Shown in pieces: positions 26,083-57,941 of a DNA stretch of 64,000 nt. Both the position numbers and the translations under genes were made by a program. Each line of letters begins with the position of its first letter. The stretch's first letter is position 1. This DNA is from Brevundimonas sp. Its GTDB lineage: Bacteria > Pseudomonadota > Alphaproteobacteria > Caulobacterales > Caulobacteraceae. The notes under the pieces were generated by a model. The model ran no database searches and was not told the origin of the DNA. It worked only from the letters and a program-made list of their open reading frames with translations. The stretch covers positions 22,164-86,163 of the forward strand of contig NZ_JBKBMX010000012.1 of the NCBI RefSeq assembly GCF_046295595.1, read 5' to 3'.

Positions 26083-26259
26083 TCACCTCTCCATTCGCGA
26101 AGGCGAATGGGGAGGACAGATCGGCGCGTCAGCGACGATCAGGTGGGGGCGGCGCCGACGGTGAGGGAGTCCGGCGCGAACCCACATCTGACGGAGCCGC
26201 CCCCTCCTGACCGCTTCGCGATCTGTCCTCCCCATCGGCCTTCGCCGACGGGGAGGTGA
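26083..26259. repeat. Palindromic intergenic element, copy A (177 bp)
   Basis: Termini TCACCTCTCC / GGGGAGGTGA and nested hairpins. The arms are near-identical to 41325-41497. It lies between convergent genes. Confidence 0.9.
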
Positions 26260-28443: not shown

Positions 28444-29193
28444 ATGACCTCCGATCAACTTGTCGCCTTCGCCCGCCGCGCGTTGCGCATCGCCCGCGCT
28501 GAAATCGCCGCCGTCAGCGCGCTGTTCATCGTCGCCCTGGGGGTGATGATCTTCGTCGAACTGGCCGACGACATGACCGAGGCCGACGGCCGGGCCTTCG
28601 ACCAGTCGGTGCTGGACGCGCTGCGGCCCGGAGCCATGATTGATCCCTGGGGACCGGGCTGGCTGGAAGAGGCGGCCATGGATCTGACGGCGCTGGGCGG
28701 GATCGCCGTGCTGGGGCTGTTCGCCCTGGTGACGATCGGTTTCCTGTTCATGCAGCGCAAACGGCTGTCGGCCCTGTTGCTGGTCGTCGGCCTGGCCGGC
28801 GGGGTGGCGCTGAGCGAGGGGCTGAAGGCGGTGTTCGGGCGGGAACGGCCGCCCGAGGCGCTGCAGGCGGTCGAGACGCTGAACGCCAGCTTCCCCTCGG
28901 GCCACAGCCTGCTGTCGGCGGTCTTCTATCTGAGCATCGGGGTGATGCTGACCCGGGCGTTCCCGGAGCGGCATTTCAAGGCCTATGTCATGGGGGTGGC
29001 GGTGCTGCTGACCCTGATCGTCGGACTGACGCGGGTCTATCTGGCGGCGCACTGGGCGACCGACGTGCTGGCCGGATGGAGCGTCGGCGCGGCCTGGGCC
29101 ATGGCGCTGTGGCTGGTCGCCTATGCGGTGCAGCGTCGCCAGTCGTCGCGGCCGCAGGAGCCGCATGTGTTGCCGGTGGATGAGGAGGGATGA
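28444..29193 (+). CDS. PAP2-family membrane phosphatase
   Basis: KAVFGRERP, SFPSGHS, TRVYLAAHWATDVLAGW: the three PAP2 motifs. Confidence 0.9.
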   Translation: MTSDQLVAFARRALRIARAEIAAVSALFIVALGVMIFVELADDMTEADGRAFDQSVLDALRPGAMIDPWGPGWLEEAAMDLTALGGIAVLGLFALVTIGFLFMQRKRLSALLLVVGLAGGVALSEGLKAVFGRERPPEALQAVETLNASFPSGHSLLSAVFYLSIGVMLTRAFPERHFKAYVMGVAVLLTLIVGLTRVYLAAHWATDVLAGWSVGAAWAMALWLVAYAVQRRQSSRPQEPHVLPVDEEG

Positions 29194-29303
29194 GGGATTA
29201 GGGATGAGGGATGAGGGATTAGGTGGGGCGGGGTGACGAGAGGGACGGCGATGCTCCTGAGCATGCCCGGCGGCCAAGCCTCTCATCCCTCATCCCTCAT
29301 CCC
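29185..29303. repeat. Inverted heptamer array pair, copy 1
   Basis: Five G-rich units (GAGGGAT/TAGGGAT, 29185-29219) and three TCATCCC units (29283-29303) between convergent genes. Confidence 0.9.
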
Positions 29304-29308
29304 TGCCC

Positions 29309-29734
29309 TTACCCCGCCCCGAACTCCAGGTCCTTCCGCGCCGAGATGATGGTGACGATGAAGCCGGCGAGGACGTCGAGCATGACCATGGTGACGATCA
29401 GGAAGAAGGTCGAGGTGGCGAATCCCTTGATCAGCAGGAACTCGACCAGGCAGACCACGAACAGGATCATCGACAGGGCGTGATTGACGATGGCGACCTT
29501 CTGGCTGGAGGTCGATTTCAGCAGTTCGAAGAACAGCAGGATCAGGGCGAGGAACAGGATCATGTCGCCGACGCCGACGCTCCAGCCCGCTCCCGAGGCC
29601 ATGGGGATGGTGAACAGGATGTCGCGCAGGCCGCTGTCCGTGCCGACGACGCCGGACGCGCCCATCAGGCCGGTCAGGACGACGATATTGTACAGCACCA
29701 CCGGGATCACGAGCAGCGGCAGGGCGATCAGCAT
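29309..29734 (-). CDS. Conserved small membrane protein (3-4 TM)
   Basis: Hydrophobic throughout; LFFELLKSTSS, NHALSMILF, STFFLI, DVLAGF; GGAG RBS. Confidence 0.8.
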   Translation of the reverse strand: MLIALPLLVIPVVLYNIVVLTGLMGASGVVGTDSGLRDILFTIPMASGAGWSVGVGDMILFLALILLFFELLKSTSSQKVAIVNHALSMILFVVCLVEFLLIKGFATSTFFLIVTMVMLDVLAGFIVTIISARKDLEFGAG

Positions 29735-41324: not shown

Positions 41325-41497
41325 TCACCTCTCCGTTCGCGAAGGCGAATGGGGAGGACGGTCGACGCGAAGCGGCGACCCGGAGGGGGCGGCGCCGGCG
41401 TCGGCCAGCCCGGCGCCAATCCCCGATCACCGAGCCGCCCCCTCCTGATCGCTCCGCGATCTGTCCTCCCCATCGGCCTTCGCCGACGGGGAGGTGA
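41325..41497. repeat. Palindromic intergenic element, copy B (173 bp)
   Basis: Same termini and arms as 26083-26259 with a different central spacer; begins 2 nt after the GT stop, between convergent genes. Confidence 0.9.
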
Positions 41498-42622: not shown

Positions 42623-42644
42623 AGAGGAGCGAGGGGGGAGGGGC

Positions 42645-42830
42645 GAGGGATGAGGGATTAGGGATTAGGGATGAGAGATGAGAGGCAGGGTCCAGGATCG
42701 AGGGTCGAGGGTCGAGGATAGAGACGAAGGCGCCGAGACGGCCGCTCCGCCTAATCCCTCATCCCTCATCCCTCATCCCTAATCCCTAATCCCTAATCCC
42801 TAATCCCTAATCCCTAATCCCTAATCCCTA
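42645..42830. repeat. Inverted heptamer array pair, copy 2
   Basis: About 5 G-rich units (42645-42679), GGGTCGA units in the spacer, and 11 C-rich units TAATCCC/TCATCCC (42752-42828, the last seven perfect TAATCCC). Confidence 0.95.
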
Positions 42831-44222
42831 GATATGGATCGCATGCCCCAGGGCCCGCAGCGACGCCTCGTGGAAGGCCTCGCCCATGGTCGGGTGGACG
42901 TGGATGGTCCCGGCGACGTCTTCCAGCACCGCGCCCATCTCCAGCATCTGGGCGAAGCTGTTGGACAGTTCGGAGACGTGCTGGCCGACCGCCTGGACGC
43001 CGAGCAGGCGGTGGTCGGTCTTTGACGCCAGCACCCGGACGAAGCCGCCGTCGTCGCCGGCCTCGATGGCGAGGGCGCGGCCGATGGCCATCAGCGGGAA
43101 GACCGCGGTGATGACGTCGTCGCGGCCGTCGACGTCCTGCGGGCCGAGGCCGGCGGAGACGATCTCGGGCTCGGTGAAACAGACGGCGGCGATGGTCACG
43201 GGATCAAAGCGTTTGTCGTGACCCGCGATGATCTCGGCGACGATCTCGCCCTGGGCGCTGCCCTTGTGGGCCAGCATCGGTTCGCCGGTCAGGTCGCCGA
43301 CGGCCCAGACGTTCTTCATGCTGGTGGCGCAACGGTCGTCGATCTTGACGAACGGCCCGGCCATGGCCACGGCCATGTTCTCGAGGCCCCAGCCCTGTGT
43401 GCGCGGCTTGCGGCCGACCGTGACGAGCACCTTGTCGGCCTTGAGCTTGAGCGCCTGGCCGTCCTTGGTGGTGACGTCGAGCTGGCCCTTTTCGAAGGTG
43501 CCCGCCTTGGCGCCGAGGTGCAGTTCGACGCCGTGCGTCTCCAGCCATTTGCGCACCGGATCGGTCAGGGCCTTGTCGTAGAGCGGCAGCAGACGGTCGG
43601 CCATTTCGACGATGGCGACCTCGGCCCCCAGCTTGCGGAAGGCGATGCCGAGCTCCAGCCCGATATAGCCGCCGCCGACCACGACCAGCTTGCCGGGGAC
43701 CGTGTCCAGCGACAGGGCCTCGGTCGAGGACAGGACGTCGCCGCCGAACGGCAGGAAGGGCAGCTCCACCGGGTCCGAACCCGTGGCGAGGATGACGTGT
43801 TCGGCGGTGATCGTGATGTCGCCGTCAGCGGTCTTCACCGTGCAGGTGCGGGCGTCGGAGAAGGTCGCCCAGCCGTTGATGACCTTGACCTTCGCCTTTT
43901 TCAGCAGGCCGGCGACGCCGGTGTTCAGTTTGCGGACGATGCCGTCCTTCCAGGCCACGGTGGCCTTCAGGTCGATGGCGGCCTTGCTGGCGGTTATGCC
44001 CAGCGTGCCGCCGTCGGCCGCCTTGGCCACCGTCTCGAACTTCGACGCCGCGTGGATGATCGCCTTGGAAGGGATGCAGCCGACGTTGAGGCAGGTGCCG
44101 CCGAGGCCGTCGCCGCCATCGACCAGCACCGTGTCGAGCCCGAGCTGGCCGCAGCGGATGCCGGCGACATAGCCGCCGGTGCCGGCGCCGATGATCAGGA
44201 CTTTGGTGGAGATCTGCTGCAT
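42828..44222 (-). CDS. lpdA: Dihydrolipoamide dehydrogenase (E3) of bkd operon
   Basis: IGAGTGGY, GGTCLNVGCIPSK, VGGGYIGLE, MLAHKG, HVHPTMGE. ATG 44222. Confidence 0.96.
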   Translation of the reverse strand: MQQISTKVLIIGAGTGGYVAGIRCGQLGLDTVLVDGGDGLGGTCLNVGCIPSKAIIHAASKFETVAKAADGGTLGITASKAAIDLKATVAWKDGIVRKLNTGVAGLLKKAKVKVINGWATFSDARTCTVKTADGDITITAEHVILATGSDPVELPFLPFGGDVLSSTEALSLDTVPGKLVVVGGGYIGLELGIAFRKLGAEVAIVEMADRLLPLYDKALTDPVRKWLETHGVELHLGAKAGTFEKGQLDVTTKDGQALKLKADKVLVTVGRKPRTQGWGLENMAVAMAGPFVKIDDRCATSMKNVWAVGDLTGEPMLAHKGSAQGEIVAEIIAGHDKRFDPVTIAAVCFTEPEIVSAGLGPQDVDGRDDVITAVFPLMAIGRALAIEAGDDGGFVRVLASKTDHRLLGVQAVGQHVSELSNSFAQMLEMGAVLEDVAGTIHVHPTMGEAFHEASLRALGHAIHI

Positions 44223-44243
44223 TTCACTCACTCGCCAGTCTGA

Positions 44244-44387
44244 CCCCTCTCCCTGAGGGAGAGGGAGGGGCCCGCCCGGCGCCGCCGGGTGGGAGGGTGT
44301 GGGGTTACGGCGCCAGGGCCGTCCGGCGCCGTAACCCCACATCCGACGGGGCTCCGCCCCGCCACCTTCTCCCTAAGGGAGAAGGGA
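44244..44387. repeat. Palindromic element between E2 and E3 genes
   Basis: CCCTCTCCC-TGA-GGGAGAGGG and CCTTCTCCC-TAA-GGGAGAAGG end hairpins; central perfect 17-bp inverted repeat 44298-44314/44325-44341. Confidence 0.88.
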
Positions 44388-44395
44388 AGGCACGG

Positions 44396-46147
44396 TCACC
44401 CCATCCACAGCGTCGCGGGATGCTCCAGCAGGCCCTTGATCCGCTGCACGAACACAGCCGCGTCGTGGCCGTCGACGATGCGGTGATCGAAGCTGGAAGA
44501 CAGGTTCATCATCTTGCGCACGACCATCTGGCCGTCCTTCACGACGACCCGCTCGGCGATCTTGTTGGGGCCGACGATGGCGACCTCGGGGTGGTTGATG
44601 ATCGGGGTGTGGACGACCCCGCCCAGGGTGCCCAGCGAGGTGATGGTGATGGTCGAGCCGCTGAGTTCGTCGCGGGTCGCCTTGCCGGACTTGGCGGCGC
44701 TGGAGACGCGGGCGATCTCGGCGGCCGTGTCGTAGGGGTCGCGGGCCTCGGCGTGGCGCACCACCGGGACCATCAGGCCGTTCGGCGTCTGGGCGGCGAT
44801 GCCGAGGTGGACGGCGGCGTGGGTGATCAGGACGCCGCCCTCGTCGTCGTAGTGCGAGTTGATCGTCGGCTGGTCGCGCAGGGCGACGACGATGGCGCGG
44901 GCGATGAACGGCAGGACGTTCAGCTTGGGCTGGTCGCCCTTGCGGTTGGCGTTGAGGTGGGCGCGGAGCTCCTCAAGGGCCGTGACGTCGATCTCCTCGA
45001 CATAGGTGATGTGGGGGATGCGGCGGACGCTGTCCGCCATCTTCTCCGCGATCTTGCGGCGCAGGCCGATGATGCGGGTTTCCGTGGTTCCCTCGGCGCG
45101 GGCGTAGGTGGAGGCGTTGGATGATCCGAGAGCGGACGATCCGCTGGAGCCCTGGGCGACATAGGCGTCGAGGTCCCCGTGTTCGATGCGGCCGGCCGGG
45201 CCGGAACCGGGCACGAACTGCAGTTCGACGCCGAGCTCGCGGGCGCGGTTGCGCACGGCGGGAGAAGCGAGCGGGCGTTCGCCGCGGGCGGAGAGGGTGC
45301 GGGCCTTGCCCCCCTCCCCCGCTTCGCGGGTACTCCCCCCTGTGGGGGGAGAATGAGGAGCCGCCGGCGGCGGGGCCATTCCTACCCCATCGGGGGTGGA
45401 GGAGAGGTCGGCGGAGCCGGCCTGACGACCGGACCGCGCTTGCGCGGTGGAGGGGGCCGGTGCGGGCGCGGAGCCCTGATTGCCCTTGCCCTCGACCTGG
45501 AAGCTGACCAGCGGCCCGCCGACGGCGATCTGCCGGCCCGCCTCGCCGTGCAGGGCGACGACGGTTCCGGCGACCGGCGAGGTCAGTTCGACGGTGGCCT
45601 TGTCGGTCATGACCTCGGCGAGAAGCTGGTCCTCGGCGACGACGTCGCCGATCGCGACGTGCCAGCCGACCAGCTCGGCCTCGGCCGTGCCTTCGCCGAC
45701 GTCGGGCAGTTTGAAGACGTGGTTTCCGGGGGATGCGGCGACGGGCGCCCCTCCACCAGCCTTCGGCTGGTCCCCCTCCCCACTGCGTGGGAAGGAGACG
45801 GAAGCGACGACGGCGGCCGTCTCCTCCCCGTCCGCGCTTGCGGATGGGGAGGGGGACCGCGAAGCGGTGGAGGGGCTGTCGGCGACAGCACTGGCGTTCC
45901 CCGCCCCCTCGACCTCGAACTCCACCAGCGGCGAGCCCACGGCCAGCTGCTGGCCCGGCTCGCCATGCGCGGCGAGCACCTTGCCGGCCACAGGCGAGGT
46001 CAGCTCCACCGTCGCCTTGTCGGTCATTATGTCGGCGATGATCTGGTCCTCGGCGACCGTGTCCCCGACCGCGACATGCCAGGCGACCAGTTCGGCCTCG
46101 GCCGTACCCTCGCCGACATCGGGCAGTTTGAAGACGTAACGACCCAT
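44396..46147 (-). CDS. bkdB: Branched-chain alpha-keto acid dehydrogenase E2, two lipoyl domains
   Basis: Two FKLPDVGEG...MTDKATVE lipoyl domains, the E3-binding LASPAVR..ARE motif and catalytic FDHRIVDG. Confidence 0.93.
   Translation of the reverse strand: MGRYVFKLPDVGEGTAEAELVAWHVAVGDTVAEDQIIADIMTDKATVELTSPVAGKVLAAHGEPGQQLAVGSPLVEFEVEGAGNASAVADSPSTASRSPSPSASADGEETAAVVASVSFPRSGEGDQPKAGGGAPVAASPGNHVFKLPDVGEGTAEAELVGWHVAIGDVVAEDQLLAEVMTDKATVELTSPVAGTVVALHGEAGRQIAVGGPLVSFQVEGKGNQGSAPAPAPSTAQARSGRQAGSADLSSTPDGVGMAPPPAAPHSPPTGGSTREAGEGGKARTLSARGERPLASPAVRNRARELGVELQFVPGSGPAGRIEHGDLDAYVAQGSSGSSALGSSNASTYARAEGTTETRIIGLRRKIAEKMADSVRRIPHITYVEEIDVTALEELRAHLNANRKGDQPKLNVLPFIARAIVVALRDQPTINSHYDDEGGVLITHAAVHLGIAAQTPNGLMVPVVRHAEARDPYDTAAEIARVSSAAKSGKATRDELSGSTITITSLGTLGGVVHTPIINHPEVAIVGPNKIAERVVVKDGQMVVRKMMNLSSSFDHRIVDGHDAAVFVQRIKGLLEHPATLWMG
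45309..45430. repeat. Palindromic element inside bkdB coding sequence (linker 2)
   Basis: CCCCTCCCCCGCTTCGCGGGTACTCCCCCC-TGT-GGGGGGAGAAT ... ATTCCTACCCC-ATC-GGGGGTGGAGG arms; encodes GRQAGSADLSSTPDGVGMAPPPAAPHSPPTGGSTREAGEGG. Confidence 0.75.
45748..45875. repeat. Palindromic element inside bkdB coding sequence (linker 1)
   Basis: Shares the exact 30-mer GGGGAGGGGGACCGCGAAGCGGTGGAGGGG (45846-45875) with the intergenic copy (57692-57721); encodes SPSTASRSPSPSASADGEETAAVVASVSFPRSGEGDQPKAGGG. Confidence 0.9.
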
Positions 46148-46148
46148 C

Positions 46149-47276
<1,128 letters not shown>

Positions 47277-47278
47277 GG

Positions 47279-48511
47279 TCAGACCCCCACCTCGCGGCGC
47301 TGTTCGGTGATGCGCCAGTCGTCGGTGGCGTAGACCTCCTCGAACATGGTCTTCACCGAGGGGCGCGACTGGCCCAGGGTGCCGATGGCCTCGGACTCCT
47401 TGCCGGCGGCGCGGACCTGGTCGACGGCCTCGGCCTCGGCGGCCGTCTGCTGCTCGTCGGACCATTCGCCGAGGGCGATCAGGTGCTGTTTCAGCCGGGC
47501 GATCGGGTCGCCGAGCGGCCATTTGTCGTGCTCGTCGGCGGGGCGGTAGCGGCTGGGATCGTCCGAGGTCGAGTGGGGCGCGCCGCGGTAGGTGAACAGC
47601 TCGATGACCGTCGCGCCCTGGTTGGAGCGGGCCCGCTCCTCGGCCCACTGGGTCGCGGCCCAGACGGCGAGGAAGTCGTTGCCGTCGACGCGCAGGGCCG
47701 GCAGGCCGTAGCCGATGGCCTTGGAGGCGAAGGTGGTCTCCAGCCCGCCGGCGATGCCCTGGAAGGAGCTGATGGCCCACTGGTTGTTGACGATGTTGAG
47801 GATCACCGGGGCGCGATAGACGCTGGCGAAGGTCAGGGCGTTGTGGAAATCGCCCTCGGCCGTGGCCCCGTCGCCGATCCAGCTGATGGCGATCTTGTCG
47901 TCGCCCTTGTAGGCGCTGGCCATGGCCCAGCCGACCGCTTGAGGAACTTGCGTGCCGAGATTGCCGCTGATGGTGAAGAAGCCGTAGTCCTTCGCCGAAT
48001 ACATGATCGGCAGCTGGCGGCCTTTGATCGGGTCTTCGGCGTTGGAATAGATCTGGTTCATCATCGTCGCCAGCGGATAGCCGCGCGCGATCAGCAGGCC
48101 CTGCTGGCGGTAGGTCGGGAAGCCCATGTCCTCGCGCGACAGGATCATGCCCTGGGCCACGGCGATGGCCTCCTCTCCGGTGCATTTCATATAGAAGCTG
48201 GTCTTGCCCTGACGGTGGGCGCGATGCATCCGGTCGTCGAAGGCGCGGGTCAGGATCATGGCCTTGAGGCCCTTGCGCAGGGTGTCGGCGTCCAGCCTGG
48301 GATTCCACGGCCCGACGGCCTGGCCGGCGTCGTCGAGCACCCGGATCAGGCGGAAGGCGTGGTCGCGCATGTCGAATGGCGCGGTCGCGACCTCGGGGCG
48401 TTCGACGGCGCCCGCCGGGTCCAGCTTCAGATGGCTGAAATCCGTCGGATCGCCCGGCCGGCCCGAAGGCTCCGGCACGCGCAGCGACAAACGTTGGCTG
48501 TTCTTCGTCAT
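47279..48511 (-). CDS. bkdA1: Branched-chain alpha-keto acid dehydrogenase E1 alpha
   Basis: RQGKTSFYM, FPTYRQQG, TPP motif GDGATAEGDFH...NNQWAIS, HSTSDDPSRYR. Confidence 0.95.
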   Translation of the reverse strand: MTKNSQRLSLRVPEPSGRPGDPTDFSHLKLDPAGAVERPEVATAPFDMRDHAFRLIRVLDDAGQAVGPWNPRLDADTLRKGLKAMILTRAFDDRMHRAHRQGKTSFYMKCTGEEAIAVAQGMILSREDMGFPTYRQQGLLIARGYPLATMMNQIYSNAEDPIKGRQLPIMYSAKDYGFFTISGNLGTQVPQAVGWAMASAYKGDDKIAISWIGDGATAEGDFHNALTFASVYRAPVILNIVNNQWAISSFQGIAGGLETTFASKAIGYGLPALRVDGNDFLAVWAATQWAEERARSNQGATVIELFTYRGAPHSTSDDPSRYRPADEHDKWPLGDPIARLKQHLIALGEWSDEQQTAAEAEAVDQVRAAGKESEAIGTLGQSRPSVKTMFEEVYATDDWRITEQRREVGV

Positions 48512-55466: not shown

Positions 55467-57266
55467 TCAGGCCTTCGCCGTCTTCATGCGGGCGATGAAT
55501 GTGTCGATCGGGTTCTCGGCCTTCAGCCGGTGCATGATGATGTACTGCTGCAGGATGGTCAGGATGTTCGACCAGGCCCAGTAGATCAGCAGGCCGGCCG
55601 GGAAGGTGGCCATGATGAAGGTGAAGACGATCGGCATCAGCTGGAAGATGCGGCGCTGCATCGGATCCGGCGCCTGGGGGCTCATCGCCATCTGCAGCCA
55701 CATGGTCAGGCCGTAGAAGATAGCCAGGACGCTGAGCGCGAAGGTGCCGCCCAGCATGCCGCCGATCAGCGGCGCCGCGGACGGGTCCCACGGCAGCAGG
55801 CCGAACAGGTTCCAGATGGTGGTCGGGTCGGGCGCCGAGAGGTCCTGGATCCAGCCGAAGAAGGGCTGGTGCCGCATCTCGATGGTCACGAACAGCATCT
55901 TGTAGACAGCGTAGAAGACCGGAATCTGGAGCAGCAGCGGCAGACAGCCGGCCAGAGGATTGATCTTCTCCTTCTGGTACAGGGCCATCAGCTCCTGCTG
56001 CTGTTTCTGCGGCTCGTCCGGGTGCTTCTTCTTGATCTCCTCCATCTTGGGCTGGAGGTTGCGCATCTTCGACATGCTCTCGTAGCTCTTGTTGGCGAGC
56101 GGGAACATGATCAGGCGCACGACCAGGGTCAGGGCGAGGATGGCGAGGCCGAAATTGCCCAGGATGCCGTAGAAGAATTCGATGACGATGAAGATCGGCC
56201 GGGTCAGGAACCACAGGAAGCCCCAGTCGATCGCATAGATGAAGCGCGGCAGGTCGAGGCTGTCCTGATAGCCGGTCAGGATCTCGGCGCGCTTGGCGCC
56301 GGCGAACAGCCGGCGGGTCTCGGTGATCTGGGTGTTCGGCTGGATGGTGTGGGCCTCGCCCAGCATGCCGGCGATGTGGGCCCGGTCGGCCGGCTCGCCC
56401 GGGCCGCTGACGCGGAACTCGGCCTTGATGCGCTCGTCCTGCGCCGGGATCAGGGCGGCCATCCAGTATTTGTCGGTGATGCCCAGCCAGCCGCCGACGG
56501 ACTCGCGTTCCTCGGGGCCGTCGTTCTTGGCCCAGCCGCCGTATTTGAGCTGGGTCGTCGAATAGGCCTCGCCGTCGCCGAAGGTGCCGATGGCGCCCTC
56601 GTGCAGGACCTGGTTCTTGCCGAGACTGGCCGGCACGCCCTGCCGCAGGACGGCGGCGGCCGGGGTCAGGGTCACCGGCTGGGCGCTGAAGTTGGCGACC
56701 GTGTCGGTGATGGTGAACAGATACTGGTCGTCGATGCTGACCTGCCGCGTGAAGCGCAGACCGGCGCCGTTGTCCCATGTCAGCACCACCGGGGTGGTCG
56801 GCGTCAGGGTGGAACCCCCGGTCAGCCGCCACGGCGTCGAGGGGCCAGGAACGCCGCCCGGGATGTTGGGGCCGCTCCAGCCAAACTGGGCGAAGAAGGC
56901 GTGCTGCATGCCCTCGGGGCGGAACAGTTCGACGGCGGGGGAGTCGGCGTCGATGGTCTCGCGGTAACGGGTCAGGAACAGGTCGTCGATGCGGCCGCCG
57001 GTCAGCGACAGCGAGCCGGTCAGGGTGCCGGTGCGGATCGGCACCCGCGCCCCGCCGCCGAGGGCGACGGTGCGGTCGGTGGTGAAGACGGCGGCGCTGG
57101 CCGGCGGGGCGGTGCTGGGGCCGGTCGCCGAAACGGCCGCGGACTCCTGGGCGACACGGCGCTTCTGCGCCTGCGGCTCCATCACGAAATAGCTGTAGGC
57201 CAGCAGCATGAGGCCCGCGATCACGACGAAGAGGATCGTGTTACGGCTGTTGTCGTGGGGGGGCAT
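55467..57266 (-). CDS. yidC: Membrane protein insertase YidC
   Basis: [51 protein letters not shown]. Confidence 0.97.
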
Positions 57267-57271
57267 GGAGA

Positions 57272-57676
57272 TCAGGAATCCTGGCCGGCGGGCGATGTCG
57301 GTGCGTGGGGCGCGACATGGGGCGCCGGCCGCGGGGTCGCGAGCCTTGTAAGCGCCGATTTCACATCGTCAAGCAAACGGTCCCACGGACGGTCCGCCGT
57401 GCCCATCCGGGCGATGAAGACATAGTCGCTGCCGGGCCGGGCCAGCAGGGGGGCCATCGCCCGCGCGGCCTCCCTGAGGCGGCGCTTGGCGCGGTTGCGG
57501 ATGACGGCGTTGCCGACCTTGCGGGTGGCGGTGAAACCCAGCCGCACCGAAGGATCGCCGTCGCCGCGGTCCAGCCGCTGCACGACCACGGCGCCGCGGG
57601 CCTCTGAAACGCCCTTCGCGGCCGCCAGAAACTGGGGCCGCGACGTCAGGCGTTCGATTTTGAATGTCTGCTGCAT
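57272..57676 (-). CDS. rnpA: Ribonuclease P protein component
   Basis: [25 protein letters not shown] (RNR motif), DYVFIAR. ATG 57676 abuts the repeat element. Confidence 0.95.
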
Positions 57677-57800
57677 ATTCCTCCCCCATTGGGGGAGGGG
57701 GACCGCGAAGCGGTGGAGGGGGTTAACCGCATCCACCGAATCCGGGTCAGGCCCCCTCCACCATGCTTCGCATGGTCCCCCTCCCCCGAAGGGGAGGAAT
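57677..57800. repeat. Palindromic element between rpmH and rnpA
   Basis: Termini ATTCCTCCCC / GGGGAGGAAT; nested hairpins ACCGCGAAGCGGT and ACCATGCTTCGCATGGT; central GAATC. Confidence 0.9.
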
Positions 57801-57806
57801 GGAAGG

Positions 57807-57941
57807 TCAGGCCGTCAGGCGCTTGCGGCCCTTGGCGCGGCGGCGCTGGACGATCTTCTGTCCGTTCTTGGTGGCCATCCGCGAACGGAAGCCGTGTCGG
57901 CGCTTGCGCACGAGTCGCGACGGCTGATAGGTCCGCTTCAC
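57807..57941 (-). CDS. rpmH: 50S ribosomal protein L34
   Basis: Hand translation from GTG 57941: [44 protein letters not shown] (44 aa; absent from the ORF track). Confidence 0.98.

Follow-up and report, generated by a model that had tools for sequence, protein, structure and literature searches.

The E2 subunit (dihydrolipoamide acyltransferase) of the branched-chain 2-oxoacid dehydrogenase (BCKDH) of a Brevundimonas species is encoded within a 64,000-nt stretch of genomic DNA, hereafter called the window, and both linkers between the N-terminal domains of this protein are encoded by palindromic repeat DNA. The repeats lie in frame between folded domains, are absent from close orthologues, and recur both across the genus and in other proteins. 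The origin of the E2 linkers from a repeat family is well supported, and it is very probable that a family of Caulobacterales resembling repetitive extragenic palindromic (REP) elements entered both of them and replaced an ancestral linker rich in Ala and Pro (Ala/Pro linker). The basic unit is a module of about 55 nt made of two adjacent hairpins, present singly or as an inverted dimer. The copies in E2 are tail-to-tail (TT) dimers of the sub-family with a (C/T)GTCTCC head on its hairpin. They would be read through in the single frame of E2 in one preferred phase, and their halves would yield peptides rich in Pro, Ser, Gly and Glu of the types PSTASRSPSP..GEET and VSxPxxGEGDxxxxxGG. Because a lipoyl-domain tether needs length and flexibility alone, the linker is presumably a permissive site, where a repeat is tolerated rather than recruited.

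The source genome is a metagenome-assembled genome (MAG) of 2.93 Mb with 69% G+C and 94% completeness, and its best-matching sequencing run is a hot-spring metagenome. The E2 gene is a 583-residue open reading frame (ORF), in which Pfam recognizes two Biotin_lipoyl domains (the second at residues 144-215), an E3_binding domain (292-326) and a 2-oxoacid_dh domain (354-581), with two inter-domain linkers ahead of the E3-binding domain. It is preceded in the operon by the genes for E1-alpha (47279-48511) and E1-beta (46149-47270) and followed by lpd (42828-~44222), so that all the domains and operon partners expected of a BCKDH E2 are present. Because the E1-alpha encoded upstream carries OxoDH_E1alpha_N, the N-terminal signature of 2-oxoisovalerate dehydrogenase, the gene name bkdB, proposed in an earlier note on this DNA, is acceptable. 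The Ala/Pro-rich linkers of 2-oxoacid dehydrogenase E2 chains, with E. coli AceF as the paradigm, act as flexible tethers on which the lipoyl domains swing between active sites. The modules in the present E2 occupy residues 91-134 and 251-280, between the Pfam domains, in frame and free of stops. The features of the gene are as follows, in window positions.

44396-46147, minus strand: E2 gene, identified by its ORF, Pfam domains and operon order.
45728-45892, minus strand: linker 1, from lipoyl domain 1 to lipoyl domain 2, unrelated to the Ala/Pro linker found in L105 and L036, two orthologues with aligning flanks (DNA alignment).
45747-45876, no strand assigned: intact TT dimer in linker 1, identified by inverted repeats, nhmmer and RNA folding.
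45846-45875, plus strand: exact 30-mer common to linker 1 and the repeat copy between rpmH and rnpA (57692-57721), found by k-mer scan.
45276-45476, minus strand: linker 2, from lipoyl domain 2 to the E3-binding domain, delimited by DNA alignment with L028, L105 and L036.
45309-45456, no strand assigned: decayed TT dimer in linker 2, identified by nhmmer, folding and alignment to the modules of L028.

The earlier note had claimed that both E2 linkers derive from one intergenic repeat family and that linker 1 shares an exact 30-mer with the rpmH-rnpA copy. The k-mer scan bears out the second claim, and the first is upheld by profile matches, the palindrome, the 30-mer and the alignment to modules of an orthologue. 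The dimer in linker 1 is a 130-nt imperfect palindrome translated as SPSTASRSPSPSASADGEETAAVVASVSFPRSGEGDQPKAGGG and includes perfect arm pairs of 14/14 and 11/11. Its halves are matched by the nhmmer profile of the repeat at C12:67911-67965 on the minus strand and C12:67998-68039 on the plus strand, with genome-wide E-values of 9e-9 and 3e-6. As mRNA it folds into a single rod of -102.8 kcal/mol (z -7.05). The 130 nt do not make up a whole number of codons, so loss of the dimer from the mRNA would shift the reading frame. The dimer in linker 2 consists of one module at 45310-45359, of the SPPTGGSTREAGEGG variant, and a partner at about 45376-45456 that is interrupted by an insertion of about 25 nt. 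Apart from this insertion, linker 2 matches intact module pairs in linker 2 of the close orthologue L028 base for base, and the 30-nt core of its module is identical to that of an insert in GlyS of the same genome.

The module belongs to a dispersed family. Copies were extracted with the strict genomic pattern GGGGGACC-N3-14-GGTGGAGGGG, which yields 30 copies in this genome, and an nhmmer profile made from these 30 gives about 42 significant matches, most of them between genes. The module of about 55 nt forms a double hairpin and occurs singly or in inverted dimers. It comprises a head (CATTCC or CGTCTCC), hairpin 1 (CCTCCCC-loop-GGGGAGG), GGGGACC, hairpin 2 and GGTGGAGGGG. The stem of hairpin 2 co-varies among copies (ACCGC/GCGGT, ACCAC/GTGGT, ACCCC/GGGGT and ACCATGC/GCATGGT). 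Nine of ten same-genus genomes tested contain 9-54 strict copies and the tenth contains one, so that intergenic copies within the genome are accompanied by presence throughout the genus, as expected of a dispersed family. Among 81 genomes sampled across Caulobacterales, 22 carry the family. The reversed control pattern gave 0 matches in every genome searched, both in the genus and order-wide. No published account of Brevundimonas repeats turned up in the literature searched. Four palindromic elements lie between genes in the window.

57674-57806, no strand assigned: head-to-head (HH) dimer of the module present in the E2 linkers, filling the rpmH-rnpA spacer, identified by nhmmer and RNA folding (-100.1 kcal/mol, z -8.9).
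26083-26259, no strand assigned: related palindromic element of another sub-family with hairpins facing outward, identified by inverted and direct repeats.
41325-41497, no strand assigned: second copy of the preceding sub-family, its right arm 96% identical to the arm at 26191-26259.
44244-44387, no strand assigned: palindromic element in the E2-lpd spacer, sharing no more than a short hairpin with the other families; its alignments to the 'family B' linkers described below are weak.

The HH dimer occupies the spacer between rpmH (57807-57941, minus strand) and the start of rnpA at 57676. Because the head of this repeat (57674-57690) abuts the rnpA start codon, where the mRNA reads GGGGGAGGAAUAUG, the element may supply the Shine-Dalgarno sequence of rnpA.

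Comparison with orthologues indicates what the repeats replaced. Sixteen same-genus orthologues were compared first and then 79 Brevundimonas E2 genes, with linker classes assigned by peptide patterns. At linker 1, 43 of the 79 have an Ala/Pro linker (33-43 residues) versus 36 with a repeat-type linker (46-69 residues); at linker 2 the counts are 38 versus 41. L105 and L036, whose E2 cores share about 92% amino-acid identity with the present one, have Ala/Pro linkers at both positions. L027 and L029 carry the linker-1 element of this gene at 81-85% DNA identity. Aligned as DNA, the flanking sequences agree as far as the final codons of the lipoyl domain, and agreement returns at the next domain; the sequences between are unrelated. 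Because homology stops exactly at the domain edges, whole linkers appear to have been replaced and not merely lengthened. The linkers of Ala, Pro, Lys and Glu are recognizably homologous across the whole tree, with shared motifs such as EAPKVEAAP; relatives thus carry an unrelated, conserved linker, as the earlier note's reading requires. The Ala/Pro linker would be the ancestral type, which sets the direction of change. The repeat-type linkers contain either module peptides or a second palindromic cassette. The module peptides are PSTASRSPSP..GEET, SPPxGEGDxxxxxGG, SPPxGGSTREAGEGG and PSNPAPQASVP..GGQ, and a DNA-level profile confirms the module matches. The second cassette, termed 'family B', reads PLSLEGRGAGGEG...PTQPSPLxGEG. 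A kinship of family B with the element in the E2-lpd spacer, as one dispersed repeat, was considered but is not supported, since its arm is single-copy and its alignments to 44235-44395 are barely above Ala/Pro controls.

Turnover of the linkers is very fast. Among 144 pairs of orthologues with at least 94% core identity, a count that does not depend on a tree, the class of linker 1 differs in 72 and that of linker 2 in 75. The class even differs between L065 and L084, which have 98.5% core identity, and L084, with an Ala/Pro linker, nests among element-bearing sisters. Parsimony on a tree of the E2 core requires 23 changes at linker 1 and 19 at linker 2, compared with about 26 for shuffled labels. 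Such turnover could stem either from numerous separate entries or from recombination through conserved flanks that exchanged linker alleles. In its strong form, the exchange model assumes one or a few ancient entries, after which whole linker alleles spread between species and between linkers by homologous recombination through the highly conserved lipoyl-domain DNA on either side; we consider this a serious contender, although at somewhat less than even chances. It accounts for the break of homology exactly at the domain edges with whole linkers differing, for the position of L084 among its sisters, and for linker classes that are nearly random on the E2 tree. Consistently, the two lipoyl-domain repeats of E2 share 80% DNA identity over 241 nt. 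The arms of family B, about 40 nt long, are identical among L033 and L056, which carry the cassette in linker 2, and L088, which carries it in linker 1. The arm is single-copy and confined to E2 in three genomes tested (G005, G007 and G009), and it is absent from the present genome and from G018. Because identical arms occur across linkers and species and yet are single-copy, some contribution from exchange is favoured. However, modules are also found in GlyS, a terminase and Lhr without homologous flanks, so entry independent of lipoyl-domain homology does occur, and the identity of the linker-1 30-mer with an intergenic copy of its own genome suggests a recent local source.

For the very probable entry of the REP-like family into both linkers, neither a dedicated transposase nor a target-site duplication was found. 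The Y1_Tnp domain (PF01797) of REP-associated tyrosine transposases (RAYTs) is absent from this genome, which is 94% complete, and is found in 2 of 41 genomes of the genus; G101, which shows the largest burst of TT dimers, also lacks a Y1 transposase. No target-site duplication is present at the filled and empty sites of GlyS or at the edges of the E2 linkers, where target sequence has been lost instead. The absence of such duplications sets the repeat apart from miniature inverted-repeat transposable elements; the search for a parent insertion sequence extended to Y1_Tnp. Entry probably occurred by recombination or repair-mediated patching, and linker alleles were probably also exchanged by way of the conserved lipoyl-domain DNA that flanks them.

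The same modules interrupt other proteins. A large-terminase-like ORF of this genome is interrupted, between the matched half of Terminase_6N and Terminase_6C, by a TT dimer read in the same phase as in E2. This ORF (C25:35507-37756; L001:2005-4143, minus strand) has the TT dimer inside its ATPase region, and a second insert rich in Pro, Gly and Ser (PLPSPSPDGGGQAAQRPGGEG...DGEGDGPSPPP) lies between its N and C domains. GlyS, the beta subunit of glycyl-tRNA synthetase (C5:179070-181496), contains a single in-frame module, QSPPAGGSTREAGEGGAAAH, at about C5:179940-180000, which lengthens a loop by 15 residues; 4 of 22 orthologues have it and 18 do not, and here again a few target codons were lost. 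Residues ~515-637 of GlyS match one other genome of the genus only (G099), so this protein has a second, larger variable insert. RuvC (C11:4213-4845) reaches Pfam position 148/148 at residue 158, and an HH dimer then adds a C-terminal tail of about 50 residues, with the stop codon inside the repeat. In relatives, TT dimers are found between the RecA domains of the Lhr helicase and in the lipoyl-domain linker of the E1-beta subunit of pyruvate dehydrogenase (PDH), and modules also occur in linkers of PDH E2 and PDH E1-beta. Candidate coding hosts at C7, C9 and C14 were discarded, since reading the true gene starts placed these repeats upstream of genes or between them. As for the lipoyl-bearing proteins of the genome itself, the PDH E2 linker (SSPPASGAGDQPRAAGGA; module match E 0.048) resembles a decayed module (C6:54633-55952 and C6:~56200-57650 are the PDH E2 and E1-beta loci), the PDH E1-beta lipoyl linker (APKATAEG) may be a decayed module by peptide resemblance only, and SucB (C2:215448-216977) retains Ala/Pro linkers.

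One variant of the module core, GGGGGGAGTACCCGCGAAGCGGGGGAGGGG, has 12 matches in 8 of 41 genomes of the genus, all of them coding and reading GGST(R/G)xAGEG. Its hosts are the linkers of BCKDH E2, PDH E2 and PDH E1-beta and the loop of GlyS. One match is antisense to an E2 linker, whose sense strand reads PSPASPVLPP at this point. The 30-nt core of the SPPxGGSTREAGEGG variant is identical between genes and species. We tentatively raise the possibility, still a doubtful one, that some lineages of the repeat have adapted to life inside genes, with stop-free TT dimers passing from one disordered segment to another in unrelated proteins and lipoyl-domain linkers offering a landing site of very fast turnover throughout the genus. 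If so, gene-adapted repeat lineages would constitute a natural cassette-exchange system for protein linkers.

The dimers differ in geometry and in reading phase. The genome contains 11 HH dimers, with heads outward, and 3 TT dimers, with heads inward. All module pairs seen in E2, the terminase, Lhr and PDH E1-beta are TT with (C/T)GTCTCC heads. The earlier note had described the coding copies as having their CCTCCCC/GGGGAGG hairpins inward, opposite to all four intergenic copies. The inward orientation of the coding copies and the outward orientation of the rpmH-rnpA copy are correct, but the four intergenic copies belong to at least three sub-families and not to one. A TT dimer also lies between genes in this genome (C30:485-594). 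The relative G101 has 16 TT centres (e.g., C3:91526, C15:18742 and C23:105462) with conserved spacers, AGACCTCGCCGCCCCACC, compared with 0-2 in other genomes, and none of the seven examined falls in a credible gene. The family B cassettes of orthologous linkers have their hairpins facing outward. TT geometry was accordingly rejected as a mark of coding copies: because TT dimers also occur between genes, the inside-out arrangement is not specific to coding regions. It corresponds to the tail-to-tail type of dimer already named for REPs (PMC3733652), and a special meaning of the geometry, such as the different route of entry hinted at earlier, is not supported. The simplest reading is that dimer geometry is a sub-family trait.

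The module in the plus orientation is read in the 79 E2 genes as GEGD in 36 cases and GRGT in 10, and never in the Trp/Arg-rich phase; in the minus orientation, 23 of 25 copies use the RSPSP phase. The copies in terminase and GlyS share the E2 phases. Because the module copies in E2 genes are not independent, this phase bias is descriptive only. It fits a filter against basic and hydrophobic readings in disordered segments. That the frame is kept without stops, also claimed earlier, is true but unremarkable, since single modules are stop-free in 227 of 252 frames. The suggestion of selection for an open frame survives in a weak version: none of the three TT dimers has a stop in any of the six frames, and about 62% of the frames of HH dimers are open, so that the advantage is a modest one.

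The earlier note had also proposed that the repeats were domesticated as linkers. True domestication would mean that the repeat makes a better linker than Ala/Pro, that an mRNA hairpin of about -100 kcal/mol paces translation to allow the lipoyl domains to fold separately, or that this hairpin stabilizes the transcript. The strong preference for one phase with absence of the Trp/Arg-rich phases, a linker-1 hairpin as stable as the intergenic copy, and the identity of a 30-nt core variant across species and genes would suit this proposal. However, about half of the genus lacks a repeat at each linker position, most of the palindrome in linker 2 has decayed with the frame left intact, and purging of harmful phases, like shared ancestry of the copies, explains the phase bias equally well. 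Moreover, class flips between orthologues with 94-98.5% core identity, together with the decay of linker 2, speak for tolerated turnover and not for retention for a function. Domestication is therefore improbable. A tolerated replacement in a disordered segment, in which the repeat DNA would be neutral, fits the data better.

Several observations weigh against entry of repeats into both E2 linkers. First, the repeat in linker 2 is statistically weak when taken alone, with nhmmer E-values of 0.023 and 0.1 within the gene and 2.5 genome-wide and a fold z of -2.05. Second, there is no clean empty site. Part of the old linker is always missing and no target duplication is seen, so that insertion as a single event is only putative. 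Third, the tree is that of E2 itself, and the near-random distribution of classes may reflect recombination rather than many insertions; the class calls from peptide patterns also include a few miscalls (e.g., L070). Fourth, translation of the linkers within E2 is suggested only by the architecture of the gene and its conservation, and the RNA runs among Logan contigs matched conserved parts of relatives only. Finally, the genome is a MAG, whose short-read unitigs break at repeat words, so that no unitig physically bridges linker 1 and the flanking domains, and word depth at the repeats jumps to thousands. These last features might point to an assembly artefact, or to chance low-complexity resemblance in a genome of 69% G+C. 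However, Logan unitigs of the likely source run match 45311-45533 and 45752-45872 without differences, and depth at the unique centre of the linker-1 dimer is 50, like the 38-76 of its neighbours. The same kind of linker is found in cultured isolates and complete genomes, among them B. sp. BR2-1, B. denitrificans NBRC 110107, B. intermedia CCUG 45022, B. lenta DSM 23960 and B. basaltis DSM 25335, which makes an artefact unlikely. The empty reversed control and genome-wide nhmmer E-values down to 1e-8 argue against chance resemblance, and an explanation of either kind is barely credible.

Elsewhere in the window, an Rfam scan of all 64,000 nt found no family for the repeat and matched an Mn riboswitch alone. 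This Mn2+ (yybP-ykoY) riboswitch lies at 1053-1196 on the plus strand and scores 56 bits, above the Rfam gathering score. Arrays of the heptamers GGGATGA/GGGATTA and their complement form inverted blocks at 29171-29312 and 42631-42844, the second of which starts at the lpd stop codon.

Palindromic repeats in frame within genes have been described before, and the Brevundimonas E2 linkers are a further example with an unusually active hot spot. Rickettsia palindromic elements (RPEs) are palindromic repeats lying in frame within genes (Ogata et al. 2000 Science 290:347, summarised in PMC10969869), and intragenic REPs are known in several phyla (PMC10969869, PMC3733652). The analogy with RPEs drawn in the earlier note is apt: here, too, a palindromic repeat lies between genes and in frame in unrelated housekeeping genes, is absent from the orthologues of relatives, stays outside folded cores and encodes a family-specific peptide. 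By description, however, the genus here is free-living and of high G+C content, the module is shorter (about 55 nt, with dimers of about 130 nt) and has a core of G and C only, and at the commonest site an existing disordered linker is replaced rather than a loop lengthened.

The CGTC-tagged super-family of REPs is mostly alphaproteobacterial, has no dedicated transposase, and pairs its units mainly in HH and seldom in TT dimers (Di Nocera et al. 2013, PMC3733652). Its units have a stem of 8-9 bp starting with complementary A-T pairs, a loop of 4-5 nt, a short CCA tail and a terminal CGTC (or TGTC/CCTC) tag; a dimer can fold into a single long hairpin, and some copies are intragenic, including in tRNA synthetases, where they encode 20-30 residues (PMC3733652). 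That survey makes no mention of Brevundimonas or Caulobacter (PMC3733652). The present family likewise shows an excess of HH dimers and lacks Y1_Tnp. The tag is seen in its gene-borne sub-family (CGTCTCCTCCCC, with CGTC or TGTC), but most of its intergenic HH dimers start with CATTCC instead. It differs in its CCTCCCC/GGGGAGG stem, loops of 3-16 nt, a second co-varying hairpin and the absence of a CCA tail. REPINs, formed by GTAG REPs, are inverted REP doublets that fold into a long hairpin, are amplified within genomes and are mobilised by RAYT transposases. The present dimers are also inverted doublets that fold into a long hairpin and are amplified within genomes, but the module consensus contains no GTAG tag, and Y1_Tnp is absent here and from 39 of 41 genomes of the genus. 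The Caulobacter CcrM-associated intergenic repeats (CIRs) of Chen and Shapiro (2003) are said to be linked to GANTC sites. Compared by description, both are long inverted-repeat elements of the same bacterial family, and the module consensus contains no GANTC. CIRs are reported to be strictly intergenic (PMC10969869). At the protein level, the repeat-type linker has the same position and presumed tether role as the Ala/Pro linkers of E2 chains, but it is rich in Pro, Ser, Gly and Glu and is encoded by a repeat-derived DNA palindrome.

These findings extend the RPE phenomenon, in which selfish palindromes are translated in essential proteins, to a free-living genus of high G+C content, and they identify the lipoyl-domain tether as a class of structural site that accepts such DNA repeatedly. 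The genus thereby offers a natural experiment, in which Ala/Pro, module or other palindromic linkers connect almost identical domains, on how little the sequence of a linker matters to 2-oxoacid dehydrogenase complexes. It also provides a test case for ribosomes that face a hairpin of -100 kcal/mol in the middle of a gene. For annotation, inserts rich in Pro, Ser, Gly and Glu, such as GEGDREAVEG and PSTASRSPSP, can be recognized in Caulobacterales proteins as repeat-derived. The very active hot spot in lipoyl-domain linkers and the variant seen inside genes only are two aspects of this family worth following.

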